From Cyanidioschyzon merolae (lineage: Eukaryota): a DNA stretch of 64,000 bases. Location of the stretch: the NCBI GenBank assembly GCA_000091205.1, contig AP006486.2, one strand, 5' to 3'. The notes beneath the pieces are model-generated. The model did not search any database. It was not told where the DNA came from and saw only the letters and a list, made by a program, of their open reading frames with translations. This document shows positions 14,019 to 55,010 of the stretch, piece after piece. The position numbers were made by a program, and so were the translations under genes. Numbering within the stretch: the first letter of the stretch is position 1; each line of letters starts with the position of its first letter.

Positions 14019-16152
14019 TTGTTCTCACGGAAGCAGCGAAACGAGCTGCCATAAGCTCCAAAAAGACGCTTTTCTTCCCAGAAAACGAGACTGTGGATTT
14101 CGCGGAGAGCGATACCTGCCTCGTCCGTTCTGAAGCAAACAGAACCAACTGTCAGTATCCAAGTTAGATTAATTTGCAACAGTTGTAGTATTTCAACTTA
14201 ATTGGGTTCCGCTACCAGGTGCACGCCATCAAATGTTTCTTCGCGATTTTTAGCAGATGTGTCCAAACAGCGTCCACGTTCAGAAGTAAAAATCCAGGGA
14301 AACGTTATGGTGGTGAAAGTTGGGGCATCCCGTAAGCGCAGCGTCGCCGGCAGTCGGAAGAAAGGAAAAAACCTATTGGCCGACCATCGAACGATGAAGA
14401 GCAAATGACGAAGAAGAAAGAGAAGCTGGGAGATAGGCGAGAATATTTGTTTGCCCGACGAGACGATGTCCAGAATATTTTGGTACAGACGGCGCGAGTT
14501 CTAGCAATCCACGCAAAGCTGGGTTCAACCAGCGTCAATTCACGCAAAGGGTTCGTAAATAGAGACCTCAAAACCGCCATCCATGTTAGACGATGTTTGG
14601 TGCTGACGGCGAAACCCGAGGAGCTGAAGCGATCCTGCTTCGTAGGGCAGCCTTTCAGGCTCAACGCGTTCAGTGAGGAGCTGAAGCCGGTAGCTGTCAG
14701 CGGACCGAAAAAGGCTGGAAGGCGTCTGTGCGTGCGTAGATGTATGTACGCTTGTTGGTCGAAGAATGTGCTTCGTTTCGCTCACGATATATGTGCGCGC
14801 CTTGATTCTGCCTTGCGATTTTCCCAAGCTTCTTAGGCGTACAGCCTGCATATTCAAAGTGCAGTAATAAGGACCTACGGATTCAAACGCAAATTAAGTA
14901 TTCTAGGTCGTCTTTTCGGAGTGGATCCGTCGGAGCTTCGCAGCTCGAGTTTGCTTCGTCACCAAGATAAAAATGATTCGCGACGCTCCCGAAAGCGGTT
15001 CCTAAAATGACCGATTCATCATTTAGTTTATTCGTACATTCCTCCACTTGTATCGTTTCCTTACGTGAAGCAAACTCATATTACATATTCGACAAGCTTT
15101 CGAGCTTGTTGTTTAAAGACAGCTCGTAGGCAGAGCACTTCGCGCTGCTGCATTGACGAGGTAAAAGTCAAGCAGTCGTCAATTAACAACATCTTCACGA
15201 GCTCATGCCGCGGGCTCAGCGAACATGTCACTTCAAATCATCGATTCCGTTCGAAAGACAAGTACGTTTCTCTGATTGATCATCGTTGATATAGGTTTAC
15301 GCAGCTACAAGACACCTTTACCGAGCTACGCTCCCAGAGGCTCCTGTGCCCTCGGTTTGCACCCAAAAGGGTATCGGACTCGGAAATTAGTCATTGCTGT
15401 GATCGCTTCATGTCGAAGGTGCGTCTCTGCTTTGTACGACGAGAGCGTATACGGGTCGACATTTCTTGACTGGTTCTCCAGCTTGGTTTTCCTTCTGATC
15501 GTTTTCCGTCATGCACGATATCATGCTCCCCAAATCGTCTATAGAATGGTACTACGTACGCCCGCGTGTGCAGCGGACGGATGACTCACTGAGGCCATCG
15601 CCCACAACAAGCCCCCGATCGTAGGGCATGGCACAGCGCGGGGACGGAAGAGAGCGTTCAGGCGAGCCCTCGGTACCCGTCAAGGAAATATATCGAGCGA
15701 TCCAGCGAACGTTCACGCGCTACAGCCCCGCCTTGGAGTGAGATGTGTTGTGGATACAGCGCAACCCCGGACCATTAAAATGCCTCACCACTGCCAGGGT
15801 CGTACCCAGGCTATATACAAAGAAGACGAAAATGGCATGCGACGCGTCTCTCATAACGTGCACCTGTGCGTCAAACGCAAATGAAAACAAGCAGAATCAG
15901 CGAAATCGCGACTTGAACCTCGGCACCAACATTCATCGACTGCTGACAACGGAACTGGAGGGACACGAGAGGCCGCCGTGCCCCCCGATGAAGGTATGGG
16001 AAAGAATATGGAAATGGTTGGAGGAAAAATCTCCTCAACGCTGGTGTAGATAGCGTCGGGAAGCATCCCAAACTTGATGATGCAAACGCGAGTTCGACAA
16101 GTAGACCTATCCACTTTTATTCAGGCAAGAATGCAAAAGCGCCCCCCGAAAA

Positions 16153-17988
16153 ATGTGTGGTGGATCATGCGCTATCGCACCGCCTGCGCTCCTGATCCGC
16201 GCTGCAAGCCGCATCGCACCGCCGATCATTTCTTTATCAATTTTATGTGAGGCAGCGAGTTCAACTCTTGAATCGTTCACGAGACTCAAGTACCGCGCTG
16301 ATTATAGAGCTGGACTGCTGCGCAGATCGGGATCCAAGGCTGAAACTTTACAGTCGGGCAACTTGAAAAATGCTCAGGGTGGCGCCTCGGTGCAGCCGGG
16401 CCGCGATCCACGCCAGCTTTCGAGCAGCGATCTGCTCAGCCTCGCAAGCAAGGAACAGGCAGCTCGCCAGTCAAAAGTTGGAAAAGGACCTGAGGAGCGC
16501 ATTTATGAGGTGATGCTTCGGCAGGAGCTAGAGTCTTTTGTTCGTTTGACCGCTTCAGCGCTTCGTCTAGAGGATGAGGAGCTGGTTGAGGTTGATTCTG
16601 AGGACTCTTCAGAACAAGAGACGGCTCTGAGCAAAGACGCTGCCGAGCCTGCGCATAGCCGTGTCCTTGTAGGAACGTTGAGCGAGAGCGTGCTGCCCCC
16701 GGTGGCTGGCACGGCTTCTGCACAGAGTGCGGCCTCGGCCTACAATGCCTCGCGGCTGCGAGTCGGGATCATCGGATGTGGGCGTATCGGCCAGGTTCAT
16801 GCGAATAACTTGGCGAACCGCGTGCCGAACGCTGCGCTTGTAGCTGTGAGTGATGCCATTGAGGATGCTGCCCGACGGATTGCGGCGCGTTTCCACGTCC
16901 CCATCTGGTACACGAATGCGGAGGACTTGGTGCATGACCCTAGAGTGGACGCCGTGGTCATCTGTTCGCCGACGGACACCCACGCACCGCTTATGAAGGA
17001 GTGCGCGCGCTATGGGAAGCACGTTTTCTGCGAGAAGCCGATTGCACTCGGCCTTGATGTGATCGATGATGCGCTGGCAACACTGGACGCTGCGAATGCG
17101 GACGTCAAAGAGCTGCGACTTCAAGCAAAACGCCCGAGCCTGTTCGTCAGCGGCGAGACTGGACTTGACAATCTAAGCCTGGCACAATTCGAGCATGATC
17201 GCCGGCTGCGTCGACTGCAACGCTCAGGCATCCAGCTGATGGTTGCCTTTCAGCGCAGATACGATCAAAACTTCCAACGTGCGCGCCTTGCCCATGACTC
17301 CGGGTTTCTCGGGAGGCCACTCAAGCTACACCTTGTGTCGAGGGATCCTGCGCCGCCACCGCTCGCCTATCTCAAAGTCTCTGGCGGCATCTGGCTCGAC
17401 CAGGCGATCCACGACTTCGATATGGCTCGATTTCTGCTTAAGTCAGAGCCCGTCGAAGTGTTTGCCATGGGCCTTTGCTGCGAACCGAGTATAGCGGAAA
17501 TCGGGGACTGCGATCACGTCATGACTCAGGTGCGCTTCGCAAACGACGCAATTTGCGTCATCGACAATTCGCGATCGACTCCGCATCAGGCGTATGACCA
17601 GCGCGCGGAGCTCTTTGGAACCGAGGGCTGCATCACCGTCGGCAACGAGTATCCCAACACTGCTGAGTATATGGATGTGATTGGACAGCACCGGGACAAA
17701 CCGTTGAACTTTTTCATGGAACGTTACGCGGAGGCTTATCTGCAGGAGATGCTTGCCTGGGTGCAGCACCTGGTAGAGATTCGGGCAGGCGGCGCCCGCA
17801 CAGCCGAAGCGGGAACGGATGCGGGTACGCCTGCTTTGCCGTTGCCGTCGGACTTCGACGGCCGCATCGCCGTGGTTATGGCCATGGCCGCTAGACGTTC
17901 CTTCGAACTCAAAAGACCGGTACGCATCACGGAAATTGACCCGAGCCTGGAGCCGATCATCGAAGCAGCTCGCACGCGTGCTGTTTAA
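16153..17988 (+). CDS. Gfo/Idh/MocA-family NAD(P)-dependent oxidoreductase (inositol 2-dehydrogenase-like) with a roughly 200-aa non-conserved N-terminal extension. The true start is uncertain.
   Basis: It has a Rossmann motif LRVGIIGCGRIGQVHANNLA and a conserved EKP motif (HVFCEKPIAL). A GFR-family C-terminal region is present (GGIWLDQAIHDFDMARFLL, FGTEGCITVGNEY). An ATG sits at 16153. The acidic N-terminal region (EDEELVEVDSEDSSEQE) has no family match. Confidence 0.7.
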   Translation: MCGGSCAIAPPALLIRAASRIAPPIISLSILCEAASSTLESFTRLKYRADYRAGLLRRSGSKAETLQSGNLKNAQGGASVQPGRDPRQLSSSDLLSLASKEQAARQSKVGKGPEERIYEVMLRQELESFVRLTASALRLEDEELVEVDSEDSSEQETALSKDAAEPAHSRVLVGTLSESVLPPVAGTASAQSAASAYNASRLRVGIIGCGRIGQVHANNLANRVPNAALVAVSDAIEDAARRIAARFHVPIWYTNAEDLVHDPRVDAVVICSPTDTHAPLMKECARYGKHVFCEKPIALGLDVIDDALATLDAANADVKELRLQAKRPSLFVSGETGLDNLSLAQFEHDRRLRRLQRSGIQLMVAFQRRYDQNFQRARLAHDSGFLGRPLKLHLVSRDPAPPPLAYLKVSGGIWLDQAIHDFDMARFLLKSEPVEVFAMGLCCEPSIAEIGDCDHVMTQVRFANDAICVIDNSRSTPHQAYDQRAELFGTEGCITVGNEYPNTAEYMDVIGQHRDKPLNFFMERYAEAYLQEMLAWVQHLVEIRAGGARTAEAGTDAGTPALPLPSDFDGRIAVVMAMAARRSFELKRPVRITEIDPSLEPIIEAARTRAV

Positions 17989-20272
17989 GAATCGCTACCT
18001 TCATGTACGCTGGCATGCGTCGTCGATTGCTTGACAGCGTCGGAGCAGAGCAGCCTCGGGGAGCTGCTCTCTGAAACCGATTCATTGTCGCCGGTTTATC
18101 CATTTTCTCTGCAGCACTGCGTGGTGAAATTTCTCTGTCCGCACAGCAGTCGTTTGCAAGTATCGTTTGGGGAGGGGGCCATTTCAGTGCGAGCGTGCAG
18201 TGCACTGGCCAGGATTTGCCTCTACTGCTCGCACACGAAGGACGACGTGCGTCGGGGTAGATGCTTGGCACCGGTCCACGTAGCGGCCGCGGACGTTGCG
18301 CTCGACTGGGTGTCGTACCAGGGCACCCCGTGTACCACCAAAAGAACTGGTTTGGGGGCTGGGAATAATGATGTATGCTCCTCATAGCTGTAAGTGCCAG
18401 AATCTTTTGATTGATGAAGTGATAGAACGCCAGACGATGGCGATCTGTGGCGAGCAACAGGATTCTTGCCAGAGGCGTGCAATATACCTCAATGGACTTT
18501 GTTCGTTCCGAATGGATAGATTTTCGTCCTAACATCAAGCGGTTAGTAAACGAAAACGAGCGTATGATTATCGTCAAAACGGCAACTCCAATCGTTTGGA
18601 GGAAATGGCTGCATGGTCTTCAGTGAACTCACAAACTCTGTATGTTGGCGGACTGTTTTGGAAGTATGGTACCGCACGGGGACGCCAACAGGCGATCCAC
18701 ACGTGCACCTGCGCTCAGGAATGAAAGGCGATCATCTGGCATCGACGCTGATGGGGTCCTCCTGCCATAAGCGTGTCGAGAAGGAGATGCCAAGCCGATC
18801 GCACGGTATCGGCTGCTGCTGGCTGAAACGCCAGCGTGTCTGCTTAGAGGCGGTTGCTTCAGCGCCATGCATTTGTCGTGGATGCTCACGAACTGGCTAT
18901 TGGATTTTAGTTGTGCATGTCCCATGATTCTGACCGGAATTCTGTGGACATAGGTCTGTTGTCGATAACCAGGAAGAAAGCAGATTCCTTTTTTCTACGG
19001 TGCCGGGTATGAGAATCTGAAGGAAATCCAGTCGACGCACGACCGCTGTCGTCTGCGAGATATATGGGCGATATGCTTTGTGCTATAGAGTCAGATCCGT
19101 CAATCTAACAGGAATCCGCTAAATGCACGACTGCTGTCGGTAACCTGAGGGGTGCATGGTGATCTTTTCCAGAATCGGCTACCTCGACTGACCTTTGGAA
19201 AGGCTGCTCGTCGTGGATGCTGATTAGATCCATCTAGAATCCGCTCATATGTTGGAGCTACAGTGGGCATTTGCTGCGATGCTGGATCCACCTTTGAGGC
19301 AGTCGTCGCATTGAGAGAGAACGGCTTTGCTGTGCCAAATGGACGTCAATTCGAGGCTCGAGGGAGTGGATGATGCCAACCCGCATCCGTGGAGAGTCCC
19401 CTTCGGAAGAGGATTGTGAAAGCTCCACGACGGACATGTATACGCATGCATTCTAAGGCACGCTCCCGTCGGCGAAGAGTAACCCGATGCGCCCACGCGC
19501 AGTCAGTGCGTGGATCGAACGCTCTGGGCCGCAGTGTATGCGGTCACCAGGACGGCTCCGCTGCTAACGTTCCGGCCAGTGAGCGCGGAAAATGGCAGTT
19601 TCTGGCGCACCAAATCCCTAGCTGCACTCCTCGTTTCAGTGAATGCTGCCTCCGAAAATCCTGATAGGGAACAGACTGCAAGTATCAATATAAGAGAACT
19701 CGACAAGGCCAGATATTGAATCCATTCCCGCACAGAGGTCATGCACCTCCAGTGCGTATTTTACCACACGAAAGCGTTATCGTGCAGCCCCACGACAGCG
19801 TTAGCGATGTGACGATCTGCATATCGCAGCCTCAGTTCTAAAACAACGCAGCCCTCGGTCTCGAAGAACGTGGCATACCGCTGCTCATGGTTAAATCATC
19901 TCCGGGGCGTGCGTTTCCGCCCATACTTTTCACGCGTTTCCGCGTTTCGTAGCATATCAATGCGAGTTTTTCACATCGGCCGCTCCCGTCCCACAAACTG
20001 TCAGAGTCCTGCAGAATTCAGAAGTCTAAAGCTTATATCTTGTTCCCAATAATTGCACGAGCAAAAGAAACTGTCCTATCCAGCTCAAGAAAACGCATAT
20101 TTCGGGCGTTTCAGCCGCACTGCCTTCAGCGCTGCTCGCAAGTGCATCATGTGGCGTTTCGGGCGGACGGCGATTTTCGCCGGCGCGGGCATGTGCGCGT
20201 CCGGCTGAACGCGTCCTCAAGAGCGGTACGAAGCAGCGTTCGAGTTCGTTGCAACGCAGTGAAACTTCCAGC

Positions 20273-25446: not shown

Positions 25447-26288
25447 ATACAAGACCCAAACGTCCAGGAAATATACTTAGGAAACTCACGGAGGTATACT
25501 GCGTTATCAGCGATGCAACCAGAAGCAAAAACTAGTGGAAAAAGCGAAGACTATAAGTGCTGCGGTCTTAATCAAGCTTACGAACTCGCCGTTATAATCT
25601 CAGGTCTGTAATGGGCAATCGCGATGACCCAAGCGCTGTTGTTTGCCATATCCACTCAAATGTTGGCCTTGGTAGTCCTTGGCCACGAAGAGTGCCCTTT
25701 TCCTTGTGTGGAGAGGGTGCTTAAACTCTAGCCCATCTTCAACCGGTATGGAGCATATATCAGTCCAGTTTAGCTGCTCCCTTTCCAGAACAAAATGGAA
25801 GTGGACCGCATACTCGGGTACAGACAAAAATGGAAACGTTCCTACTATGCTAAAGGGCAGCCTTTGGAACATTGTTCTGCATCTGTTTCTCTACCTCTAT
25901 ATCCTCTCCGCTCATAAATAAGACAAGAAATCTTTTCCCCAAGCTCCTTTTCAGCAGTAAAACGATATTGATAGCAGCGTTCAAGTTCAGATTTCGCCAT
26001 TTCCATCAGATGTCGTTGCATTCCATGCACAGGTGGGAGTTGCGAGCTATGCTTTGCTTGCCATTCGCATCTACATTTTTCGCTGCCTCTGTGTCCACTT
26101 CGCAGCGCTGGGAATATTCCATGTTGAGTGATCTGGTATATCCACCACACTTCCTCCTGCGAGCGCCGCCCTGTGGCGCGTGAATGCTCGCGCCATCGTT
26201 CAGTAGGTCCACCTGATGGTTCCAGAAGACTTCGCTCGATACCATCATCCTTCTGCGAGCTCGCTGCGGCTCTTCGATCATACGTCTA

Positions 26289-28824: not shown

Positions 28825-29438
28825 GGACAAAATGAGACTCCGGCGTTCTCATGGGTAACGTTGGGAGCTGGAAAGCAAGCAGCACTACAAAAGCCCGGAA
28901 AGGCTTGTGTTAATAATAGTTAGGAGAGAGCCAGATTGTAGGTGATATATTCGGTTAGTTAAATAACTCCATTCCATTTTATTCTGACATTGTGCTACTG
29001 AAAAACCGACGTCTTCCATAAGATTAAGAAATGTGTCAACTGGGAACCAGAATCCAGAATTTCGGCGAACAATGTACCAAAATAGATTATATTGTTCTCT
29101 ACGGACATTTCCGTCCGTGCGCATGAAAGCCGCCATCGCGGGCTCCCGATGAGGCCAGCGAGATCTCTGCAGCAGCGTACCAGCGCCAGGAGACAAATCG
29201 CGCTCCAATCGATCATTGTGGTAAGTTGCTCACGACTCTCGGCGGCGTTAGTCATAGACTGTTCTCCGAGAAGGTTGCCGTCGAAACAACTTTTTGGTTT
29301 TAGACCTGTTACAAGCCGCTGTTGGAGACAGCAGCGGACTGTAAAAACGGGGCCAGACAAGTGGCCGACTTGGCAAAAGGACACGCAAGTTTCACTTCAA
29401 GCACTGCTACCTAGTACTCATCCGCTGTGTTGGCCAAA

Positions 29439-35323: not shown

Positions 35324-36660
35324 CAACAAAAAGGGCCACAGCGTTCGGCACCCTGGCGCAAGCTTGCCTTAAGCAGTTACGTCACACGCATTCACTGAAG
35401 CACCTTCCAGTGGAGTCCAGCGGTAAACGACGCAAGTGTGCCGAACTCAACCCGGTGGACAAACAAAGTCAATCTACCATCATCAGTCGACGTCCTGGTT
35501 AGCGTTTTCAATTGGTAGGTTCGCTAAACCCCTTCAAGATTATCCCCGATCTGCAGATGCTCGAATCGCTCTGCATGCCGGTGCACGCTGCCAGCTGCAT
35601 CATGTGTTCTTGTCCTATGTTACCTGCATTCGCTGCCGACGGTCTTGCCGTCCACGCATCTATCGTACATCATCCAAACAGGTCACGCAGGCGCCCCTAC
35701 CCACTTGCGCGGAGAACCGCGGATCCGAAACTTACCACGATTTCAGGCCTCTTTTGCTTGATCCACTTGGCTCCGTTGTGCACCATCCGTCCTATGGAGA
35801 AGCTCATCACTGAGGGCTTCAAAGGTGTGCGACGAGCACCTGTGATACTCATAGCCGTTCAGCTGGGCTATTCCTATGTGGCAAGCTAGTAGATTAGCCT
35901 AGACCAGGCATTTAGTGTGTGTTAAAGAATAATATCTGTAGCGCGAACTTATTTGCGAGACGTGATATGCGCCATTGCCCATCCCTTGACTCTGCGCTGC
36001 CCTTGCGTTGGGGAGAATTGCTGTCTCTTCCAGAATGCCGCGGTTTCGAATCGCAACGAGTATATTTGTTGAGATGTGTCAATCGCGTCTGGGAGCGACG
36101 CACACAGCGCCCTGGCGCGAACGCAGCACACGCAGCGTGGCAGCTTCTGAGTCGAGCGATCGACTTCTATTCGATTGTTTAGTATGCAGTGTGGGTATTG
36201 TGCTGGAATGCTGCGGACTCTCGATGAAAAACATCATGTATCATCAGAGCGGCGATTAAGTCCCCGCTTGGGGCAAGCCACTTGTATGGTACGGTCTGCA
36301 CTGTATCAAGGCTGGACTGCCATATACTTTCGCCACGAACAATGTTCGTGGGTAACTGTTAAACTATAATTGTGTTTCATTCATCAACATGACGGAGAAT
36401 AAATCCACCAATCACATAACATGTACAAAACGTACAGACCGATTGGGCTGCAATCACCTCGGCAGGTGCGGAACGGGCACCGCATCCCCGAGGTGAGCCT
36501 GGCTCTCTGGAGCGGGCGCGCTGAGAACACCGGCCAGTAACGGGATCACTCCCACGCGAAGCGCTTCGAAATATCAAAGAACATTCTTCGTTTCGTTGAG
36601 CGTTTAACGGCATTGCCACGTGAAATTCCTCTCGTTTGGAAGTAGACGTTTTTGACTGTT

Positions 36661-37824
36661 ATGGCTTTCGTGTGCTATCCGCTGTTTACAAGTGCAAAGT
36701 TTCGTGTCATACCCGCACACGGTCTGCATTCGAGGAGCAGCACGCTGTGGAAGGGCACTACTGCGGGACGGCATGCGGCTGGTAGGGCTCTTGTCGCCTC
36801 TTCAACAGCCCGCGGCGCTCTCACACTTCGAGGCAACGCGGCGGGCGCTCCTCGACGCCCTTTGCAACCGCTGCTTGCGAAAGGTGCGGCCGTGCTCGCG
36901 GCTTTAGCTGTTGCAATCTCTCCGTTGCTTGGTGACCCAGAAGCCGCACTTGCAGCACAGGGAGGCGGTCGGGTCGGTGGCTCGTCTTTTCGGGCACCGG
37001 CGACTCGGAGCGCACCGCCTCGGAGCTATCGCGCTCCTTCCGGGGGTATTGGAGGATATTATTATAGCCCGGCACCAGTTTTGCCTTTCACGCCCTTCTA
37101 CTTCGGGCCAGTGGTTGTGCCGTTTGGTTTCACCGGAATAGGGACTTTTCTTCTTGCGGCGGCATTCTTCGCGTTTGCCACACGTGCTCTAAGCTCGAAT
37201 CTATCCGGTCTTGGAGTTTCTGCTGCCGCAGAGGATAGTGAACTGGCCGCAGAACAGACGACGCTGGTGAAGCTTAAGGTGGGTTTGCTCAGTACAGCTC
37301 GCGAGCTGCAACAGGAACTGGAAGAAATTGCGCTCCGCAGTAAGACAGATTCTATTGTCGGCCTGCAGCAGGTCTTACAGGAGACAACGCTTGCGTTGTA
37401 CCGAAACCCTGACTATTGGAGCTTCGGGAGCGTAAACGTGAAGCGCACGTCGCTCTCAGAGGCAGAGGCTGCATTCAACAACGAGTCTTTCGCTGAACGC
37501 GGGAAACTTGAGAAAGAGACACTATCAAATTTTGGTGGACAGATTGATATTCGGAAGCGGGAGGTTGCAGAACGCGACTCCACCGACATGCGAGTACCCG
37601 AGTTTATTGTGGTCACACTGATTGTTGCTGCGTCTGGCCGAGTTCCAGGCGTTCCTACAGAGATTCGAAGAAGCAGTGACATCGAGGCGGCGCTTCGGGC
37701 ACTTAGCAGCATCCCGCGGGAAGCACTCCAGGGCGTGGAGGTCATCTGGTCACCTCAGTCGCGCGAGGATGCGCTTACTGAGAGCGAAATGCTCGCTGAC
37801 CATCCGGAGCTGGTGCGAATATAG
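36661..37824 (+). CDS. DUF1517-like glycine-rich membrane protein, putatively plastid-targeted.
   Basis: After an N-terminal presequence-like region comes a Gly-rich block GGGRVGGSSFRAPATRSAPPRSYRAPSGGIGGYYY, then hydrophobic segments (FGFTGIGTFLLAAAFFAFA), then a charged coiled region. This architecture recalls the plant and cyanobacterial DUF1517 family. The assignment rests on memory of the family pattern, not a search. Confidence 0.45.
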   Translation: MAFVCYPLFTSAKFRVIPAHGLHSRSSTLWKGTTAGRHAAGRALVASSTARGALTLRGNAAGAPRRPLQPLLAKGAAVLAALAVAISPLLGDPEAALAAQGGGRVGGSSFRAPATRSAPPRSYRAPSGGIGGYYYSPAPVLPFTPFYFGPVVVPFGFTGIGTFLLAAAFFAFATRALSSNLSGLGVSAAAEDSELAAEQTTLVKLKVGLLSTARELQQELEEIALRSKTDSIVGLQQVLQETTLALYRNPDYWSFGSVNVKRTSLSEAEAAFNNESFAERGKLEKETLSNFGGQIDIRKREVAERDSTDMRVPEFIVVTLIVAASGRVPGVPTEIRRSSDIEAALRALSSIPREALQGVEVIWSPQSREDALTESEMLADHPELVRI

Positions 37825-38735
37825 AGTGATGCGGAGTCCACCGAATACCAGAAACGGAGGTTCGCTCTCGGAAGGCGAAATCGTTAGGAACACGAGATCC
37901 AGCGTGGATATCGATGTGGATTTGGTTCGTCGCATATAGCAAGGTCGATACGGCGGCCCGCATCAGCAGGTCTCCTGCAACGTCATCCGTTCCATGCGCT
38001 CCGTGACATCAATGCTGTCACCTCCAGTGTCATTCCTAACTCATCGAAAGCGATACTTTAAAGCGGAAGCGCGGACCCCACAGAGTGGACGCATCTCGCT
38101 GAAACCCAGAATAGAATCGTGGGTTTGGTGCTCTGTGCATGTGGCCCACGCCCAGCGCTGAACTACGGAAATCTGGCTTGTGGACTGGTACGCAAGACCT
38201 GCGTGGCAATACGAGCGGGGCACCCATATGAAGTATCCATGTGCGTCTTGCACAGAATGCGATGTGCGACCCAAAAAGCGAGCACTCGATGGCGGCGACA
38301 TATCTCCCCAGGAATTGCCCCTCTTGCCGCTCTCGATTGTTGGGTTCGCGAGAAACACCGGAACTTTTATATTCTTTGGAAAGAGGCAAACAGTGCGCGA
38401 GAACTGAGCAGCGTTGCAAGTCTGTAGTCCATAGCTGCTGATTCAGTGCGTTGACAGAGGGTAATATGCTGGAAGTGGGGCGCAACGTGTTTCAGAAAGT
38501 TGTACAGAAATGCCCAACCGGTTGCGGCAGCATGCATGCGCCGCCCCAGCACCTCCAAGGCTATGGTGGCGGTTTGCTGCGGGCGTTCTGCGGATCTCAA
38601 GCCGGATCTTCGGGTTTGCGGGCAAGGCGCTTCATGTTCGTTGCAGGTAGAGTCGAGAGCGCGTTTTTCTCGCGAAAAACAACAAGGGTTTTGTCTAGAT
38701 ATAAGACTTCGAAAAGTAGAATTTCCAGGTGTAAA

Positions 38736-39239
38736 ATGAGCTTTAACGGGGGGTTTCTCGGAAAGAACGCCGTGTTCGCACAGACGATGCTTCGAATCAA
38801 GGACCCCTCAAAGTCGCGGCAGTTTTACGAGGCGCTGGGTATGAACTTTCTGACGCGCTTCGACTTTCCGGAACTGTCATTCTCCCTCTATTTCTTCGCA
38901 CTGGAGAAGGATCCAACAGTGCCGGCGGAAGATGCTCCACAACCAGAGCGGGCAAAGTGGCTTTTCTCGCGTCAGTACCCGACTCTTGAGCTTACACATA
39001 ACTGGGGAACTGAGAAGGATCCGAATTTCAAGTACGCAAACGGGAATACGGAGCCGGGTAAGGGCTACGGTCACATCGGCTTTCTCGTGGATGATCTCTA
39101 CGCGAGCTGTGCCGCCGTAGAGAAAGCGGGTTATGTCGTGTCGCGGAAACCGGGACCCTTCCAGAACGTGGGCGAAATTGCTTTCGTACGGGACCCGGAC
39201 GACTACTGGATTGAGTTAATCCAAAAACCCAAGTCTTGA
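38736..39239 (+). CDS. GLO1: Lactoylglutathione lyase (glyoxalase I).
   Basis: [82 protein letters not shown] and [14 protein letters not shown] align almost residue-for-residue with human GLO1 ([22 protein letters not shown]..., [54 protein letters not shown]). The start is set at the ATG at 38736. The longer ORF-track extension from 38451 has no homology. Confidence 0.85.
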   Translation: [167 protein letters not shown]

Positions 39240-40452
39240 GCAGAACGTGCGCATGGATTTTAGAAGCAGGCGATGCGGACGAATGTCTGGGAGTCTCCGA
39301 AAGAGTCACTGTTTCGTCGGTGCAATGATAAGCAGCCCGTTTCAAGGTTGCCCGTATCCGGTGATTTCGGGAAAAACGCGAGTTTCCTGTCGAACTCGTC
39401 GGCATAACGATAGAGCGGGGGAATTTTACAGGCAAACTTGGGGCCACTGTGCTTCGGATGTAGAAGCCACGACAGCGCCAAAAAGGTCACCTCACTTGCG
39501 CTTCCACGCGGAGGCTCCTGCTTAGAAAGATGCTCGGCGCGAAGCGTTGGCATTTGGATTACGAGACTGTTTGTACCTGCTCGCCGGTTCTGGCCGGATT
39601 AAACACAAATCTTAGAGAGCACTGCACAGCTATGATTCTGGTTCACAGCTGGAGAAGAAGCAGCTGCCAGTTAGGGCGCATAGACTGGTGGCAGCGCTCA
39701 CAAATTTGGGTGAGATGTGGACGGATATCGCCGGGAGTTCTCTAAGGGGCTAGCATGAACGGATTGCATCTACGGCCTGGAAGTCTGGCGCATCTGGAGC
39801 GATCTGGAACCGTAAACTTCTTGCCGACACGGCAAATCAGCTTTCGTTGCTGCTATTGAGTATCCTGCATCCGCATTTTCTTGAAACTTTCACGCTTTGC
39901 AATTGCGTCGAATCCAACTTACTGGTCGAAAACAGCTCAAAACTGGGACCAACACTCGCCAAGTAGCTGCTCGGCATACATATTTGGGAAGCGAATCCAT
40001 CCGCGTCGATATAGGGTTCTGATGCTGTTGCATACCAGCAACACAAGCACCTTGGCAGATGCACACGTCGCTTCGGCATCTGTTGCGTGCCACAGAGAAG
40101 TGCATATCGCCGTATGCGCATCGATTTCCAAAGATGAACGCTGAAAGACGACCGGGACTTCGGCGCGATTCACCGCACCGGAGGCTGTACAATTGTAGGG
40201 CGCTTTATTATTTGACATTCTACTTTCACATAAGTTTCAAACCGAGTGGTGTTCCGGGACAAGACGGGTGTTACTGGATATCGTGTTGTCCAGTTGTCAA
40301 CGGATTGGTGTAAAATTTTTCTGTTACAACACAGCTGAGGCCTTTTTGCTATGCAACTGGGCGAGTAGACCGGATACGTGGCCCAATCTAAGGCTTCCTT
40401 ACTCGACCCTCCGGCACTGAAAGTAAGCTGAATCCGATAAGCATCTCACAAC

Positions 40453-41555
40453 ATGAGCTGCAAAGGTGCAGCTTTTGGGTTCGCCACTCTAAATGGCTTG
40501 TCAGTTCGGAGGCATTTGTTTTGTAGGAGTTCGGCAAATCTTCGAGTCTGCGGGAAGCTTTTTACTGGTTCACAATATCCACGTGCTCCAAGGTATTTTT
40601 TGGTGCACACTGACAAGAGTGCCGGCAACACTCCAAGTACACGAGGTTGGGAGGAATATGCGGGAAACTTTACTTTCAGGCCTCCGCACGTTATCGCAAG
40701 GCCCTCACAGCGCATAGCCTACAGGATTGGAAACGGTACACCGCTGCCTCCCAAAGCCCTCGTTCATTTTCTCGGGGGCGCCTTCATTGGCGCCGCGCCG
40801 CAGGTTGCGTATCGATGGTTTCTCGAGCAGTTGGCTTTAAAGGGCTTCGTAGTAGCCGCGACGCCGTATCGACTTTCCTTCGATCACCTTTGGACGATGG
40901 ATGACGTGCTCACCAGGTTTTCAGCAGCAGCGGGAATGCTCGCTCTAGATTATGATCCTATCCCTGTTGATGGGATCGGTCGCTCCTTGGGCGCTCTCCT
41001 GCACACCCTTGGAGGCAGCTTGTTTTGCAACGCGGATGGGTACAAGGCTGCCGATGTACTGATTGCATTTAATAATCGCCGCGCGGAAGATGCGATACCT
41101 TTATTCAGAGAGCTTATCGCGCCCGTAATTAAGACAGTTGCCGGACTGGTGAACTCTCTGATGTGATCCAGCGACTCGTTATCGATGGGCCTGAGACCTC
41201 TGACACTCTGTTCGACACTGTTACAGATGATGTGTTCCCTGGTTCTCGGGATAGTGAGCTTTTCGCCTTGGTGCGACAGTCAAGGGCGCTTGCGCAGCAG
41301 ATTCCACCTTTATTTGCTGAGGTCGCTGATGGAGCTTTTGCATTCAACCCTGATCCTATCGAGGTCATGGAGGCAATTCGCACACTATACAAAGTTCGTC
41401 AAACGCTTATTGTGAGCTTCGAAAACGATATCCTCGATGACTCGCGTTCGCTCCAGAAAGCACTAGACCCTGAGCGAGGCGGTACAGTAATCCGTCACGG
41501 GGGAACTCATTTAACCCACTGCGCACAGGATTTCCTGACCCACGGCTCCGAATAA
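40453..41555 (+). pseudogene. DUF1350-like alpha/beta-fold protein gene split over two reading frames (40453..41166 in frame 1, then about 41133..41555 in frame 3). It is either a frameshifted pseudogene or a sequencing error.
   Basis: ATG at 40453. LVHFLGGAFIGAAPQVAYRWFLEQLALKGFVVAATPY resembles the DUF1350 family (plant and cyanobacterial). The downstream ORF continues without an ATG (the track start is a GTG) and looks like a continuation of the protein. The two frames overlap only between a TAA at 41130 and the TGA at 41164. Confidence 0.5.
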
Positions 41556-41899
41556 GAGACTTTTTCTCCTCAGTTTCTCGAGAAGGGGATAACGATATGG
41601 CCTATATGCTCAGCGAAGCTATGTGTCGACTTGTACTTTGCGAAGCAATGCAGACGGAAAACAGTATTGTGGAGTATCTGGGCCGTGCTCCCTGACTGCA
41701 GCAACGCTCTCCATATAACTCCACGCGACTGCGTTTAAATTGAAATCGCTTGTGCGAATCCGCACGCGGCGCACTGATGAATTGCATTCAGAAATCGAAT
41801 TTATCGCCATAGCGAGAACCCTTGTTTTTGTTGGAAAACCAAAACCTGCCTCATCTTTTTTCGACGTGTATGAACGAATGAATTTGTTACACACGCCGG

Positions 41900-45220: not shown

Positions 45221-48067
45221 ATGTTCGGAAAGCCTCTTCCAGAGTGGCTAGCGGCAACGTACCCGCCAGAACCTGGAGCCTCGCTCTGTGACTCGAGAGC
45301 TTACTGGAGGTCTCACATTTTGAACTACTTTCAAAGTGTGGGATGCCCTTTGCAAGATTGGCATCTCGGTGACCGGCCTATCACGTCAGCTCGTTCGCTT
45401 CTCGACTGGATAGATGGAATTCGCGTAGGCCAGGATCCTCAGCACCGTGAGCGCTTGCGCTGGCGACCTGCTCTGAATACGCTGATGGAAGCTGATGTGC
45501 CAGTGTCAAGGTCTCAAGAGGAGCTACTCAGAACTGCTCTTGATCTTCTTCGCGGTGACGATCGGTACGTATTGATCCGAGGTCACTCGGACTCCCGCTA
45601 TGCTGGGCCGAACGCATCAGTTGCAAGACTTCTGGCTCCAGAATGGGTAGCGCTCACGCGTGCACTGGGCGACTGCGTCGCTCTCCGGCTGATCACCGAC
45701 TTCGTCTTGCTGGAAAGAGTTGGTCCCTCCTGTTACATACAACTGAGCGGACGGGTCGGACTAGAAAGGCTCTCTGCGAAGTCAGCGAAAGCACCCCAGA
45801 CTCATCGTGAAATCCCATGCGATATGCGCGGCGCTAGTCACAGACTGCATATCAACGCAGATCCGCATAGAACTGAATGTCCAACGAAAGCACGCATTGA
45901 AACATCCAAGGCACATGCTCTCCCGATTTCGACGAAAAGCATCGCGCTCGGCCCCTACGGCATAACGACAAGGAACCCGTATCTTGCCATGCATCCCTCA
46001 AAATCTAACGCCAAACGTTTGCTTGCGCTCGCTGCGGCAGGGCTGTGCTCACGCGAAGAGTATCATGGAGGGGTGTGTCTCCCTCTTCGCTGCTCCTCCT
46101 GTATTCGTTTCCTTGACGCTTTTCGCTGCATACTGGTGCGAGCGTGGGATATTCCTCTGAAGGGAATGCTCAACCATTACTGCCCATCGAAAGCAACCAC
46201 TGTGGACCAGTCTCAACCAGTTATGAAAAAATATGCCTCTTCACGCCGCTCTGTTTTCCATTTCCTCTTTGCGATATTCAGATCGATTGTTCCCACTTGT
46301 GTGTTTGAGTCCTTTACATTTGAAATCTGGGTACGGAAGGCGATATCCTCCTTCCTTCTGAGCAAAATATCTTCCACGCCTTACGATGTACGACTTCATG
46401 TCGCTCAGCTGATGGAAACGGTACAATTTCAGCAGCATCAGCCTATGTCTTTTGGCGACGCTGGAGTATGCCGCAACCATCCGCTGCACATTCAGCATAT
46501 TTTCAGCTTTCTTTTCAACGCCATCGTCATACACGTCTTCGATGAATGTTTTGTTCTCAGCGCAGCCGATCGCGCTGAGATGCGGAGATTGATATTACGT
46601 CGAGACTCGCTCTTCGTTTTCCGCACGCAAGCCATTGCTCACCTTGTACGCAGTGGCGACTTTGAACGCATGCGGAAGAATCTCGGTAAGCGAACTGGTC
46701 ACTGGACAAGTGTTCGTATTTTGCCGAAAGCGAACAGCTTTCGACTTGTTCAAAAAATGAGCCCTGACACACAGGGGAAGGAGACAACCCTAATACACGC
46801 TGTTTGCCTGTACGAGCGCTTGTCTCGACCTGAGGCGTTCGGCGCGAGCATTCGTTCTCTAACTGAAATGCACCAGCGTTGGGCCGCCTTCGTCCAGAGA
46901 TGGCGACGGTTTGGGCGACCGCCTCTTTTTGCACTATGCTTCGATATCCGCCAGGCTTTCGATTCTATACCTTTGAAGCGTTTTCTCTGGCGAGAGCTTT
47001 CGGATTTCTTTCACTCAGAGGCCTACGCGCTTCGAAGGTTCATTGTCACAGACAAACAATTTCGATTTCCACAACGAAAGTGGTTTGCCTGCCCTATTGC
47101 TGATGTCACTAGAGGTTACGACGCTTTTGCTCTGCAGTACTTGCAGTCAGCCCGCAGCAAAATTATTGCCGACGAGGGCGTGATTTGTTCGCTGCATACC
47201 GCCGATATCATTTCGCATTTACGTCGAATTATCGGAAGCAATCAAGTTCATTTTGGCGATCATTCTTCAGCGTTAATCCAGCGCCGGGGCATTCCCCAAG
47301 GTTTACCAATATCGAGCATCCTATGCGATTTTCACCTCGGATGCTTTGAGCGAAAATGTCTGAAGGATTTCCTTCGCGTTAATAGTACAAAGGATCCGCC
47401 TTCCTTATTGATGCGTTACGTAGATGATGTGTTTTTCGTAACGAGTGAAGTTTCCATCTTCCGTGCGTTTTGCAACAGGGTTCAGCAGTGCTCAAAAGCG
47501 CTTGGCGTGATGCCATCTCCCGGGAAGACTCGAAAATGCGTCGCAGGCGGTAGGAAACCCCGTATCGAATGGTGTGGCATGATTTTCGATCTGCAGAGTG
47601 CCCAAGTTCTACTACGGATGCCGCGGTCTATCCCATCGGAGGCACCGGACGCTGCTGTCTTTTTCTCGAAATGCAAAACCGCAAGCCATCCTCGAATCCT
47701 CCGACGGTTTATTTCCATTTTCGCCTCCCAGATGCAGTCAGTATTCCTTGATCTCTCCATTAACGGCCCTGAAACTGTGAAACGGAATATCTGCACTGCA
47801 TTACGCCTAGCCCTTAACCGCATCGGTGAGGATGATCTGAGAAGTTCGCTGCGAGAGAAACCAGCTCAACGCATCCTGTTGCGATGGCTACGTCAAACGA
47901 CCATGAATCGATGCTGCCGCTGGGAGCCGTTGTCGGAACAAACGCCACAAACGTACCGCAGTGAACTGAACCGAATCCTCTGCGAAGGATTTAGGATAAT
48001 CTTACACAAATGCATTCACAACGAAGATTGTTTTCAAGGCTGTCGTGCTGCTTCAAGCTGTGCGTGA
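45221..48067 (+). CDS. TERT: Telomerase reverse transcriptase (TERT), 948 aa in a single exon.
   Basis: RT motifs match TERT: motif 1/2 VRILPKANSFRLV (human RFIPKPDGLRPI), motif A LFALCFDIRQAFDSIP (hhDVTGAYDTIP), motif B' RGIPQGLPISSILCDFHLGCFE ([22 protein letters not shown]), motif C LLMRYVDDVFFVTS (LLLRLVDDFLLVT) and motif E IEWCGMIFDL. The upstream T/CP-like region and the N-terminal extension are consistent with a TEN/TRBD region. ATG at 45221. Confidence 0.85.
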   Translation: MFGKPLPEWLAATYPPEPGASLCDSRAYWRSHILNYFQSVGCPLQDWHLGDRPITSARSLLDWIDGIRVGQDPQHRERLRWRPALNTLMEADVPVSRSQEELLRTALDLLRGDDRYVLIRGHSDSRYAGPNASVARLLAPEWVALTRALGDCVALRLITDFVLLERVGPSCYIQLSGRVGLERLSAKSAKAPQTHREIPCDMRGASHRLHINADPHRTECPTKARIETSKAHALPISTKSIALGPYGITTRNPYLAMHPSKSNAKRLLALAAAGLCSREEYHGGVCLPLRCSSCIRFLDAFRCILVRAWDIPLKGMLNHYCPSKATTVDQSQPVMKKYASSRRSVFHFLFAIFRSIVPTCVFESFTFEIWVRKAISSFLLSKISSTPYDVRLHVAQLMETVQFQQHQPMSFGDAGVCRNHPLHIQHIFSFLFNAIVIHVFDECFVLSAADRAEMRRLILRRDSLFVFRTQAIAHLVRSGDFERMRKNLGKRTGHWTSVRILPKANSFRLVQKMSPDTQGKETTLIHAVCLYERLSRPEAFGASIRSLTEMHQRWAAFVQRWRRFGRPPLFALCFDIRQAFDSIPLKRFLWRELSDFFHSEAYALRRFIVTDKQFRFPQRKWFACPIADVTRGYDAFALQYLQSARSKIIADEGVICSLHTADIISHLRRIIGSNQVHFGDHSSALIQRRGIPQGLPISSILCDFHLGCFERKCLKDFLRVNSTKDPPSLLMRYVDDVFFVTSEVSIFRAFCNRVQQCSKALGVMPSPGKTRKCVAGGRKPRIEWCGMIFDLQSAQVLLRMPRSIPSEAPDAAVFFSKCKTASHPRILRRFISIFASQMQSVFLDLSINGPETVKRNICTALRLALNRIGEDDLRSSLREKPAQRILLRWLRQTTMNRCCRWEPLSEQTPQTYRSELNRILCEGFRIILHKCIHNEDCFQGCRAASSCA

Positions 48068-49207: not shown

Positions 49208-51610
49208 GAGCAGTGAATCCCGGAACAAGTGCATCAGCTCGCACTTTCCTTCTTGTTCCATTTGTCACAAGTACTCATCAAAAGAAATGTATATTTTAGA
49301 TCGGAGAAAGGTCCCGAAAACATTAGATTTCGTCACTGCTAGCTTCCCCGGAAAACGAGCTTGCTTCTTCCAGCCTGTTATTCGTCGGTCAGCAGGCGGA
49401 TACATCCCCGCCCTTCACGTATTGCTTATCCTGAACGTTGTGCTTCCACAACAGAACTTATCAAACCCGCTGGACGCGACGGTCGCCTCGTCAATCCGTT
49501 CCTCCCCATACGTTCTCGGTGAGATACCACCAAAGAAGTCACAGCATGCGCAGTTTCCCCATCGGTGATACAGGCGGAGAAAAATACGCCCGGATGCAAG
49601 AGCAAAACGAACATGCTTCTTCGGGAGACCGTCGCGCATTGAATGAAGCACCCCTCGTTTCGCACTGGAGCGCGAAGGCCTCGCACTCGACGGATGTTCG
49701 TCTCGATATCCTGAACCTTATGCCCGACAAATGGTAGACATGTGCACGGCGACTCGAGCAGGGTCAAACCGCTGTTCGTGCAGCAGAGACAAGAGAGCAT
49801 GATGACAATATCGGCCCTAGCGACGGTGCTATCCTGTGGTCGCCTACGTATCGCGATTCGGACAGGATTGGTCAACGCCTTAGCCTTCGTCGAGGAACGC
49901 TTCGCGGCTTCTCCTCCACCATGTCATTCTATGCTGTTCTTCGTAGACTTCGCTTTCCGTGTCTTAGACGCTGTCAAAGAGTACGCAGGTGGAACTAGCG
50001 CTGAGCCGCCCTTCACGTCAGACTATTCTTCCTGGTTCAATGCGTCGAATGCATCTTGTCTGTTATCAGACACCATCTCTGTGCTCACTCACCTATAGAC
50101 GAGTCATTCGCATCCGTAAAATTATTCTTCAACGAGTACGTCTTCGAGAACAGGTCCTGTACTTTCACTGGGCCTGAATTGCTGCGTTCCTCCTGCGCTC
50201 TTTCTGCTGAGGGAGCGCAGAGGCGCGCTCCGTGCCGCGAGCGTACTCGCCACGGAGAAGTCTGTAATGAGGCACTTGAGCAATCGTGGTTGCTTGCGTA
50301 CACAGAAAAGCACGAATGTCAGCGCCGTCGTCCGCACCGTGTGCCTGAGTCCCAGGAAAAAAGGATTTGGATTATAGCGACAACATCCACACTACTCCGC
50401 CAGCGAGACGACGGGGCGACGGAGAAAGACAGGAAAATGCCGGACAAACAGGAAGTGAATGATCCTCCCAGAAAGAGGACGAAGAAGAACCAGAAGGGAA
50501 AGCGGCCGGGGCAGACATATCAGCGAGAAACAGTTGCCGAAGCCTCTCTACGGAAACACATCAATGGGGGCAAGCCTCCAAGATGTGGGGTTCAGGACAC
50601 CATTCGGGATTTCGAGGCTTCTCACTCGAGGAAGTCTCCACGGGCTTCTCTCGCCGAGGCGCCCGTCGTCAAACACATGTTCGCGTGAGTGCTGGACGCA
50701 GAGCTCCCCGCGCTCCAGGCTCCTCTGGATTTTGCCAAGTAAATCTTCGACCGGCAACGCAGCTGATGCTCGCGACGGTGGATGCAGCACGGCCTGATCG
50801 AAGAATCAGGGACTTGTATGAATGCCTCTGAGCGTACGATGACTCGTCGGCGCGCCGCGTCGGCAACAGGAACGTCTACAACGCAGGTGCCACAGATGAA
50901 ATGAACCACCAAAAATTCAAGTTCCTTGGCGGGTCATTGTTGAGCACCTCACCGGGCATACCCAGTCAGCGTTGTACGCTTGTGCACTCACACCAGTGGT
51001 CCGGAGCGTGAGCACTGATGGAAGGGGTTCATAGGGGTGCCCATGGAGGCAAGTGACGAGCTGGAGGCTACGGAGGAGCGCGAGATGGCAGCGAGTTTCG
51101 AGAAGATGCCGCAGCAAGAGCGGTGGGCGCTTCAGATCGTTCAAGTTTATGGTGCTGCTGAGGGCTATTGGACCGCCGAACGTCGTTCCTGAGTATGTTT
51201 GAAGCGCGACGCCTGCCATGCTTGCATGTTGCGCTACTTCGGTTTCCTGAACAAAACCTCCACTGTAGAGCACCCTCCCTGGCCGAGTCCGAACTCCCTG
51301 GCCTACTCAAGCGCTTCTTGGACGCGGTCCATGCACGCGACTTCTAGGGCCACGATATTACTGTACTGTACTGCACTGCAGTGTACTGGACTGCACTGGA
51401 CTGCACTGCACTGTACTGCACTGTACTGTACTGCTCTGTACTGCACTGCTCTGTACTGCACTGCACTGTACTGCTCTGTACTCCTCTGTACTGCACTGCA
51501 GTGTACTGGACTGGACTGGACTGCACTGCACTGGACTGCACTGTGCTGTGCTGTGCTGTGCTGTGCTGTGCTGTGCTGTGCTGTGCTGTGCTGTGCTGTG
51601 CTGCACTTGA
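49208..51610. repeat. Dispersed repeat family B, copy 1 (at least 2.4 kb), apparently non-coding. Its 3' part is a pentamer minisatellite.
   Basis: It is about 97-98% identical to 61773..64000 in the same orientation (constant offset 12565 until the minisatellite). The ORF-track translations are duplicated at 49742/62307, 50056/62621, 49426/61991 and so on. Copy 2 is cut by the window end, so the true 3' boundary of the family is unknown. Confidence 0.9.
51354..51608. repeat. Minisatellite of degenerate (T/C/G)ACTG pentamers, about 38 units, followed by about 12 perfect CTGTG units.
   Basis: Direct reading gives tactg tactg tactg cactg cagtg tactg gactg ... then ctgtg repeated 12 times across 51541..51602. 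It generates long spurious ORFs on both strands (51199..51870 +, 51344..51616 -). Confidence 0.95.
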
Positions 51611-54148: not shown

Positions 54149-55010
54149 ACCTTGTCTGCGGAAACCTGTTCGAAGCAGAAACCGGCTCGACGAATTGCTC
54201 TGTTTGCACTTTTGCGAAATCCGCGAACAATCTCGTTGGCAACCGTCGCTCAGTGCCGATGCATTTCGAGAGCGCTCTGTTGATGTACTTCCCCTAAACC
54301 TATTTCAGATTCCATTGAAACACTCAGCAGCCTATTCAGTTCATGCTTTTCGAAGTTTTTCGAAATTTGTTGCCCGATATCCAGCCTCGACAATGGTGGG
54401 ACAGCAATAAAGCTACACAGTTTCAAACGTGATTTTAGGGTTCTCAGTCGTCTTTCTGGAAAAGCTACATCTAACCAATGCCGCTGGAATTCGTTACGTC
54501 TCGGGTATCAAAATGATTCGCGATGCAATGGAGCAAGACTTCAACTTAGCCGATATCATCATCAAAATCGTACAAAGAAGGTTCCAATATTCTCCATTAC
54601 CTTTCGCGTTGTGTGGTTAAATAATGTTTCCTTCAAGTTTGTAATGTTTCTATTTCAAGGCAACTCATGAATGCAGGAATTCGCGGAGCAGAATTGAAGA
54701 TAAAAAATCTCGACGTCGCCCATTGACGGTTAATTTACAAGCTCACTCAGTATAGTCACTAAATTTGTCACGTCAGGTAATCGGTATCGTTCGAATGACA
54801 AATGCTACTCTCTATCCAGTGAAGAAATAAGATTCGACACAAGACTGGTGACTTTCACAGGGGATGATGCCAGAGACTCTCGTCTGTTATGTGTCCATAG
54901 AAATGGATCTTCGACTCGGACTTCAGTTCTCGCACAATCTACGTCCAGTGGAAAGGTACATAATCGCTTTTCAGGAGCGAAGCTTCGATGGACCGAAATT
55001 CCGCATCTTA

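Follow-up and report, generated by a model that had tools for sequence, protein, structure and literature searches.

Within a stretch of 64,000 nucleotides (nt) of the Cyanidioschyzon merolae genome (contig AP006486.2 of assembly GCA_000091205.1; hereafter the window, in whose coordinates all features are given, genes and gene segments being on the + strand), two adjacent open reading frames (ORFs) together resemble a single protein of the DUF1350 family that has lost its continuity. This locus raises a question: Is the gene truly broken, and how did it come to be so? An initial annotation, made from the sequence alone, had read the two ORFs as one DUF1350-type protein interrupted by a frame change, leaving a choice between a true frameshift and a base-calling error. 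The answer that we consider very probable is that we are dealing with a paralogue, on chromosome 4, of the plastid-type DUF1350 hydrolase gene of the red alga C. merolae 10D, duplicated from chromosome 18, now a pseudogene with two frameshifts, and partly converted by its sister copy. It is an ordinary duplicated pseudogene, which requires neither a sequencing error nor a new mechanism.

DUF1350 designates an uncharacterised family of alpha/beta-hydrolases confined to cyanobacteria and plastid-bearing eukaryotes (PMC11878206). The Arabidopsis member, AT3G43540, is among the plastoglobule core proteins (PMC12587418), and a Chlamydomonas member, Cre01.g000900, has been found in the eyespot fraction (PMC4678213); the family has no known function (PMC11878206, PMC12587418, PMC4678213).

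One gene split over three reading frames

The first ORF begins with an ATG at 40453 and runs in frame 1 to a TGA at 41164-41166, encoding 237 amino acids (aa) that end in ...KTVAGLVNSLM. The second runs in frame 3 to a TAA at 41553-41555 (...THGSE*) and is closed upstream by another TAA at 41130-41132. When compared with the DUF1350 profile PF07082, for which the Pfam gathering cut-off is 27 bits, the first ORF scores 106.5 bits (E 1.8e-30, profile positions 13-140) and the second 36.7 bits (E 3.6e-9, profile positions 110-211). Because both halves exceed the gathering score, their adjacency is not a matter of chance. When an intact 417-aa relative is compared with the window by tblastn, it falls into three collinear pieces, aa 1-230 (40453-41142), aa 231-362 (41142-41537), and aa 351-413 (41501-41689), which match frames 1, 3, and 2, respectively. 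The two ORFs are thus confirmed as collinear parts of one DUF1350 alpha/beta-hydrolase gene, as the initial annotation had proposed, and no single frame covers the whole domain, which is split over frames 1, 3, and 2. The same annotation had named, as evidence that would speak against it, a family that normally stops near ...VNSLM; the homologues extend well past this point.

The three segments can be delimited precisely. Segment 1 (40453..41142, frame 1, codons 1-230) carries the N-terminal extension, the HFLGGAF strand, and the nucleophile elbow, and its reading is closed by the premature TGA (41164..41166) seven codons past the shift. Segment 2 (41145..41536, frame 3, codons 232-362) has no ATG start and carries the helical cap, the Asp-bearing strand SFENDILDD, and the catalytic His motif, which reads GTHLTH where the family norm is GTHLTP; in the ORF listing its frame is closed by the TAA at 41553..41555. 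Segment 3 (41537..41695, frame 2) is a degenerate remnant of the C-terminal helix, DPRLRIRDFFSSVSREGDNDMAYMLSEAMCRLVLCEAMQTENSIVEYLGRAP, which is 54% identical to the intact type; the frame 2 reading past the second break, DPRLRIRDFF...MCRLVLCEAMQTENSIVEYLGRAP, comprises the last ~52 codons up to a TGA at 41693-41695. The end of the gene that had been placed at 41555 is therefore right for the frame 3 ORF, whereas the remnant extends to 41695.

In GenBank, the first ORF, together with its out-of-frame tail to 41166, is exactly the protein BAM79183.1 / XP_005535469.1 ("hypothetical protein, conserved") of the 513,455-bp record of C. merolae 10D. By the published chromosome sizes, the length of this record corresponds to chromosome 4 and that of the 1,253,087-bp record, discussed below, to chromosome 18. 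A homology search with the fused halves retrieved a 367-aa metagenome protein at 92% identity, the best named relative being that of Cyanidiococcus yangmingshanensis at 62%. The 90% protein cluster of the first ORF contains intact 417-aa versions along with pairs of 187-aa and 130-aa proteins identical to the two ORFs of the window. An NCBIfam scan of the gene gave no match, and scans of the region for promoters, terminators, and tRNAs found nothing.

Two frameshifts that recur in independent assemblies

The intact 417-aa version occurs in an allele-like form (P0039, P0040, P0044, and P0033 on 27 contigs) that always adjoins the gene for eIF2B-epsilon, and alignment with this intact type at the DNA level resolves the breaks to the nucleotide. 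The initial annotation had confined the join to 41133-41166; it lies at 41140..41145, where GTT GCC CAA ACT GGT of the intact type corresponds to GTT GCC GG ACT GGT of the window. The change from GCCCAAACT to GCCGGACT turns 9 nt into 8 nt by the loss of one base and two substitutions, and the net 1-nt deficit shifts the reading from frame 1 to frame 3. A second site, which had been missed when a single frame change was proposed, lies at 41536..41537, where TTC CTC GAC CCA is represented by TTC CT- GAC CCA, a 1-nt deletion that takes the reading on from frame 3 into frame 2. Relative to its intact relatives, the window copy thus bears disabling lesions, namely the two frameshifts, along with premature stops at 41164 and 41553.

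Both deficits are present in metagenome contigs L014-L019 and L025-L029, which come from at least nine samples of the Joint Genome Institute (JGI), and this recurrence excludes a base-calling error in the reference, leaving the true frameshift of the two alternatives that had been offered. Six of these contigs, L014-L019, which we call the broken type, have the same sequence as the window at the first site while being 99.4-99.8% identical to it overall, not 100%. The deletion at the second site is common to the window, L014-L019, and two further contigs, L001 and L002, which are considered below.

Small differences also exist within the broken type. At 41200 and 41237, L014 and L017 retain the base of the intact type, yet they have the base of the window at the interleaved positions 41207 and 41230. 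Recent mutation within the 10D sub-lineage probably accounts for the replacement F250S (41200) as well as for the synonymous substitution at 41237, a hint that decay is ongoing.

Loss of conserved residues and its structural consequences

The damage is not limited to the reading frame. In an alignment of 15 family sequences, three replacements occur in the window copy alone: H177R, in which CGC (40981..40983) has taken the place of the His codon of the G-H-S-x-G elbow that all other members possess; N201D, in which GAT (41053..41055) replaces a family-invariant Asn; and P356H, in which CAC (41517..41519) replaces the Pro of H-L-T-P beside the catalytic His. In a second alignment of 24 sequences that omits the window copy, His177 and Asn201 are invariant. 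As for position 356, all 12 remaining sequences of alignment A1 have the Pro, and in alignment A4 it is nearly invariant (at least 90%). Hence, the set of family-invariant residues (the His and Ser of GHSxG, N201, D326/D329, H353, and P356) is not complete in the window copy, in which the Ser, Asp, and His codons of the catalytic triad are still present. Its family likeness remains recognisable in the HFLGGAF strand, the nucleophile-elbow Ser, the ND..D strand, and the catalytic His, whereas it differs from other members in being broken twice, in having GRSLG for GHSxG, Asp for Asn, and HLTH for HLTP, and in a C-terminal helix that is out of frame and degenerate.

The direction of change can be followed with red-algal outgroups. 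In the divergent tract of the gene that contains the first frameshift (tract 1, see below), the outgroup state is kept by the intact type at 11/17 amino-acid differences and by the window at 0/17 (sign test P = 0.001); the corresponding ratios of intact type to window are 3:0 for the middle of the gene plus tract 2a and 10:3 for tract 2b. This polarity shows that amino-acid changes accrued almost only on the window copy.

What the frameshifts would mean for the protein may be judged from the intact homologue P0002, for which AlphaFold predicts (pLDDT 73, pTM 0.75) an alpha/beta-hydrolase fold with a large helical cap; the fold assignment applies to this intact homologue and not to the window copy itself. 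In this model, the first frameshift maps to the start of the helical cap, after the strand that follows the nucleophile, and severs the Ser from the Asp and the His of the triad, and the second removes a long, confidently modelled C-terminal helix. The top Foldseek matches of P0002 are monoglyceride lipase, curacin thioesterase, and haloperoxidases, with E values of about 1e-9. Hydrolases of the monoglyceride lipase and thioesterase type that have a helical cap (e.g., PDB 3hju, 3qit) share the fold with E values of about 1e-9 to 1e-10 and a probability of 1.00, together with weak sequence matches at the nucleophile elbow, but identity is only 13-18%, the template modelling (TM) score is about 0.37-0.5, and the red-algal proteins have a much larger helical insertion. 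A sequence search of the PDB returned alpha/beta-hydrolase matches that were sub-threshold only (E 0.07 or worse).

A probable intact paralogue and the duplicated blocks

Where, then, is the intact gene? Neither a second copy of DUF1350 nor a gene for eIF2B-epsilon was found within the window by blastn and tblastn. In contigs of the intact type, DUF1350 is always followed by eIF2B-epsilon, which is encoded on the other strand and beyond which the DNA matches the window from 19663 to 15573 in reverse. In the outgroup Cyanidiococcus, the gene order is DUF1517, glyoxalase, DUF1350, eIF2B-epsilon, and the arrangement of DUF1350 beside eIF2B-epsilon is consequently ancestral. The homology of the window to contigs of the intact type ends at 41783, ~88 nt past the stop codon of the remnant, and no poly(A) is found at this end.

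Cluster look-ups show that the flanking genes are annotated twice in 10D, on the 513,455-bp and the 1,253,087-bp chromosomes. The two products are identical at 487/491 positions for the GFO_IDH dehydrogenase (BAM79173 vs. BAM82584), at 386/387 for DUF1517 (BAM79181 vs. BAM82580), and at 167/167 for glyoxalase I (BAM79182 vs. BAM82581). For DUF1350, the 237-aa fragment BAM79183 on the smaller chromosome has as its putative counterpart the accession slot BAM82582, at the expected position on the larger one. eIF2B-epsilon, absent from the window, is represented by BAM82583 on the 1,253,087-bp chromosome only; nicotinamidase is BAM82585 on the same chromosome, and the nicotinamidase region of contig L022 has no match in the window. 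Given that the ancestral gene order holds the intact copy and that the flanking genes are doubled in 10D, the window copy is the derived duplicate.

An intact DUF1350 paralogue in 10D itself is a strong inference from accession order, from synteny, and from contigs, such as L007/L023, in which the intact gene lies beside an eIF2B-epsilon gene 100% identical to that of 10D. Moreover, sample 3300050361 contains contigs of both the intact and the broken type that begin at window-equivalent 40414, and contigs would share a start base in this way if two paralogues caused the assembly to fork.

Two blocks of the window are involved in the duplication. Block 1 (36520..41783, at least 5.3 kb) includes DUF1517 (36661-37824), glyoxalase I (ending at 39239), and DUF1350, its left limit being at or before 36520. 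Block 2 (14841..19663, ~4.8 kb) includes the gene for GFO_IDH / myo-inositol dehydrogenase (16153-17988); in the chromosome 18-type locus it is the immediate neighbour of eIF2B-epsilon, in an orientation opposite to that of the DUF1350 block.

The identity of block 2 to different environmental contigs varies from 96.8% to 98.5%. Despite the complete or near identity of their copies, the duplicated neighbours are not modelled consistently in GenBank: glyoxalase (38451-39239) has 201 aa on chromosome 4 vs. 167 aa on chromosome 18, and GFO_IDH has 491 aa vs. 566 aa, while the ORF of the window from the first ATG (16153-17988) encodes 611 aa. The start codons of these models probably need harmonising.

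Mosaic divergence and probable gene conversion

The comparison of the 10D window with chromosome 18-type environmental contigs, namely those in which the gene is intact and linked to eIF2B, reveals strikingly uneven divergence. The flank (36520-40400) differs from the intact type by about 0.7%, the spacer directly 5' of the gene (39240-40452) by 0.8%, and synonymous divergence (dS) is 0.01-0.02 in the duplicated neighbour genes and 0.02 in codons 1-73 of DUF1350. Then follows divergent tract 1 (40673..41237), with 43 substitutions and 1 indel in 565 bp (7.6%), a dS of 0.18, and a nonsynonymous divergence (dN) of 0.044. Directly after it, the segment 41238..41420 has 0 differences from the intact type, where ~14 would be expected at the rate of tract 1; the first fixed difference is at 41421, so that 41238-41426 contains 1 difference, as do codons 263-325. 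In divergent tract 2 (41421..41783), divergence climbs to about 25% toward the end of homology at 41783, with dS of 0.26 in tract 2a (codons 326-362) and 0.56 in tract 2b, the out-of-frame tail, in which dN is 0.25. This heterogeneity is significant both for the near-identical stretch 41238-41426 (P = 9e-6) and for the tract compared with the flank (Fisher P = 9e-23), and it constitutes a significant mosaic between paralogues of the kind by which gene conversion is recognised. The spectrum of tract 1 is balanced, with 32 transitions and 11 transversions and no strand or base bias, and synonymous changes are over-represented (23/41, P = 3e-5). An ordinary spectrum combined with a synonymous excess implies that the tracts diverged over a long time while still coding.

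This pattern is most simply read as an old duplication in which interlocus gene conversion has homogenised the blocks again and again. Tract 1 and the block edge have probably escaped it and thus show the true age of the duplication. In evolutionary terms, a chromosome 18 segment with GFO_IDH, eIF2B-epsilon, DUF1350, glyoxalase, and DUF1517 would have been duplicated to chromosome 4 without eIF2B-epsilon, and the intact copy beside eIF2B-epsilon would have continued to supply the function, relaxing selection on the chromosome 4 copy; two independent 1-nt deficits have broken the frame of this copy into three pieces. The duplication would be old, considering the dS of 0.2-0.5 in the presumably unconverted tracts, and most of the block would later have been homogenised by conversion, except for two divergent tracts, of which the second reaches the block edge. 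The retrotransposon-rich DNA past 41783 marks the end of the duplicated block. The locus resembles known converted duplicated pseudogenes in lying in a segmental duplication, in having disabling frameshifts and asymmetric amino-acid change, and in showing near-identical patches beside old divergent tracts, with divergence rising to the block edge; it differs from them in that conversion is here deduced from the pattern and in that two possible "repaired" variants, L001 and L002, may be assembly chimeras.

Some points weigh against this reconstruction. The dN/dS of tract 1 is 0.24, and this synonymous excess implies that the window copy has been constrained for part of its history; some residual function of the 237-aa fragment is formally conceivable. 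Gene conversion is deduced from the divergence pattern only, and assembler switching between paralogues may lie behind some of the patchwork in metagenome contigs. Finally, the intact paralogue of 10D, presumably BAM82582 on chromosome 18, is itself inferred rather than observed.

The contigs L001 and L002, from two hot-spring metagenomes, deserve attention in this respect. They have the context of chromosome 4 and its state at 40412-40629 and from 41421 on, and the intact-type state across exactly tract 1; hence, frameshift 1 is absent and the invariant His and Asn are present. Their switch points, from broken to intact type and back, fall in stretches of 95 bp and 183 bp that are identical in both paralogues, and no contig with broken-type tract 1 was retrieved from the two samples. 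These contigs could be real strains with tract 1 repaired by conversion or chimeras produced by the assembler, and the strain-specific indel considered in the initial annotation may consequently be partly right. That the chromosome 4 pseudogene is in active exchange with the intact chromosome 18 gene in wild C. merolae-like populations, as L001 and L002 would exemplify, is possible though on balance doubtful.

Two other patchworks were encountered. Contig L030 (1,052 bp, JGI 3300053652; protein P0045) is of intact type to ~codon 165 and then of window type with frameshift 1; it has private changes (Y to C, VIK to VVE) and is too short to separate a recombinant from an assembly chimera. Among contigs of the intact type, the spacer 5' of DUF1350 (window-equivalent 39444-40002) occurs in two haplotypes, L009/L010/L012/L013 vs. 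L003/L008/L011, one nearly equal to the window and the other with ~20 extra differences in ~560 bp. This split could represent a population-polymorphic conversion tract or assembler switching between paralogues.

Alternative explanations

Could the gene be intact after all? An error of base calling or assembly in the reference would have this consequence, single-base indels being a classic sequencing artefact and a near-identical paralogue being apt to confuse an assembler. This is very improbable, for both deficits and all 43 substitutions of tract 1 recur in independent assemblies from at least nine samples, the first site is a complex 9-to-8-nt change rather than a homopolymer miscount, radical replacements affect invariant sites, and the 10D genome has been finished to 100% completeness (PMC1955436). 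Alternatively, the gene might function through recoding, be it programmed -1 ribosomal frameshifting or slippage during transcription, or its parts might form a functional split enzyme, given that the same -1 correction is needed at both breaks, that the downstream frames are open for 130 and 52 codons, and that dN/dS is below 1 in tract 1. We regard this, too, as highly improbable: Neither site has an X XXY YYZ heptamer (GTT GCC GGA CTG; TTC CTG ACC), no homologue is shifted there, including the near-identical paralogue type, the invariant His, Asn, and Pro are lost, segment 2 lacks an ATG, and in the frame 2 tail, which is only 54% identical, nothing is left of the conserved LRE/RR motifs. 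A very short spliceosomal intron, which had been ruled out from the outset, can be dismissed as extremely improbable. Once the GT...AG pairs were listed, the sole in-phase candidate that would remove the frame change was one of 23 nt (41149-41171), and it was rejected on the ground that the intact type is collinear base for base, with no inserted sequence, and codes through these 23 nt (TGELSDVIE). The window is 1 nt shorter than uninterrupted coding DNA, where an intron would have added sequence, and the deficit sits upstream of the GT...AG pair.

The remaining alternatives accept the lesions and dispute their history. The intact and broken forms might be two alleles or strains of one locus, one of them null, with the tracts arising from introgression or long-term polymorphism; the evidence for a DUF1350 gene on 10D chromosome 18 is indirect, and the mosaic forms P0001 and P0045 resemble recombinants. 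However, 10D is clonal and haploid and has both sets of flanking genes on two chromosomes, an accession slot being found where DUF1350 would be expected, both forms occur in one sample on contigs forking at the same base, and the downstream context is wholly different past 41783. On account of the flanking gene sets, alleles maintained by introgression or balancing selection were dropped from consideration, and we rate a single locus as improbable. The duplication might instead be recent, with localised hypermutation of the chromosome 4 copy in place of an old duplication and conversion, as the sharp clustering of differences and the retrotransposon-rich surroundings, with a reverse-transcriptase ORF 3.4 kb downstream, could suggest. 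The ordinary, balanced spectrum of 32 transitions to 11 transversions and the synonymous excess (23/41) speak for long evolution as coding sequence and make hypermutation distinctly improbable. An origin of the tracts mediated by reverse transcriptase was rejected for the same two reasons, together with the lack of poly(A) at the end of homology.

Repeats beyond the duplicated block

Right past 41783 begins a gene-poor stretch that contains, at 45221-48067 (+), an intact ORF of 948 aa with an RVT_1 reverse-transcriptase domain. This is presumably one of the few non-long-terminal-repeat retrotransposons of C. merolae with an intact reverse-transcriptase ORF (PMC1955436). The orthologous locus of Cyanidiococcus has a related ORF ~6 kb past eIF2B-epsilon (L020, from 15527 onward), with 64% nucleotide identity to 46814-47446 of the window. 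The window also includes two pairs of direct dispersed repeats: 26287-28845 / 55009-57580, identical at 98.4% over 2.57 kb, and 49208-51433 / 61773-63998, identical at 98.8% over 2.23 kb and cut by the window end.

Implications for C. merolae and the DUF1350 family

Descriptions of C. merolae usually stress its minimal redundancy, and a literature search for a duplication or gene conversion between its chromosomes 4 and 18 found nothing relevant. The locus described here documents a segmental duplication between these chromosomes, in at least two blocks and with the signature of gene conversion. It has to be taken into account in read mapping, in targeting by homologous recombination, and in the assembly of Cyanidiales metagenomes, in which contigs break, and may switch, at the fork. 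For the family, the consequences are immediate: BAM79183.1 (UniProt M1VF82), a "conserved hypothetical protein" according to GenBank and UniProt, represents just the N-terminal part of a pseudogene frameshifted twice and is unsuitable as the DUF1350 representative of C. merolae, the proper target for knockout or localisation of DUF1350 in this alga being the copy linked to eIF2B-epsilon. These results are useful for annotation and for work with the model alga, even if the mechanism is unsurprising. Should L001 and L002 be real, they would have captured ectopic gene conversion in the course of repairing part of a pseudogene, and would be evidence that recombination still takes place in a lineage that has long been regarded as asexual and as having almost no redundancy.

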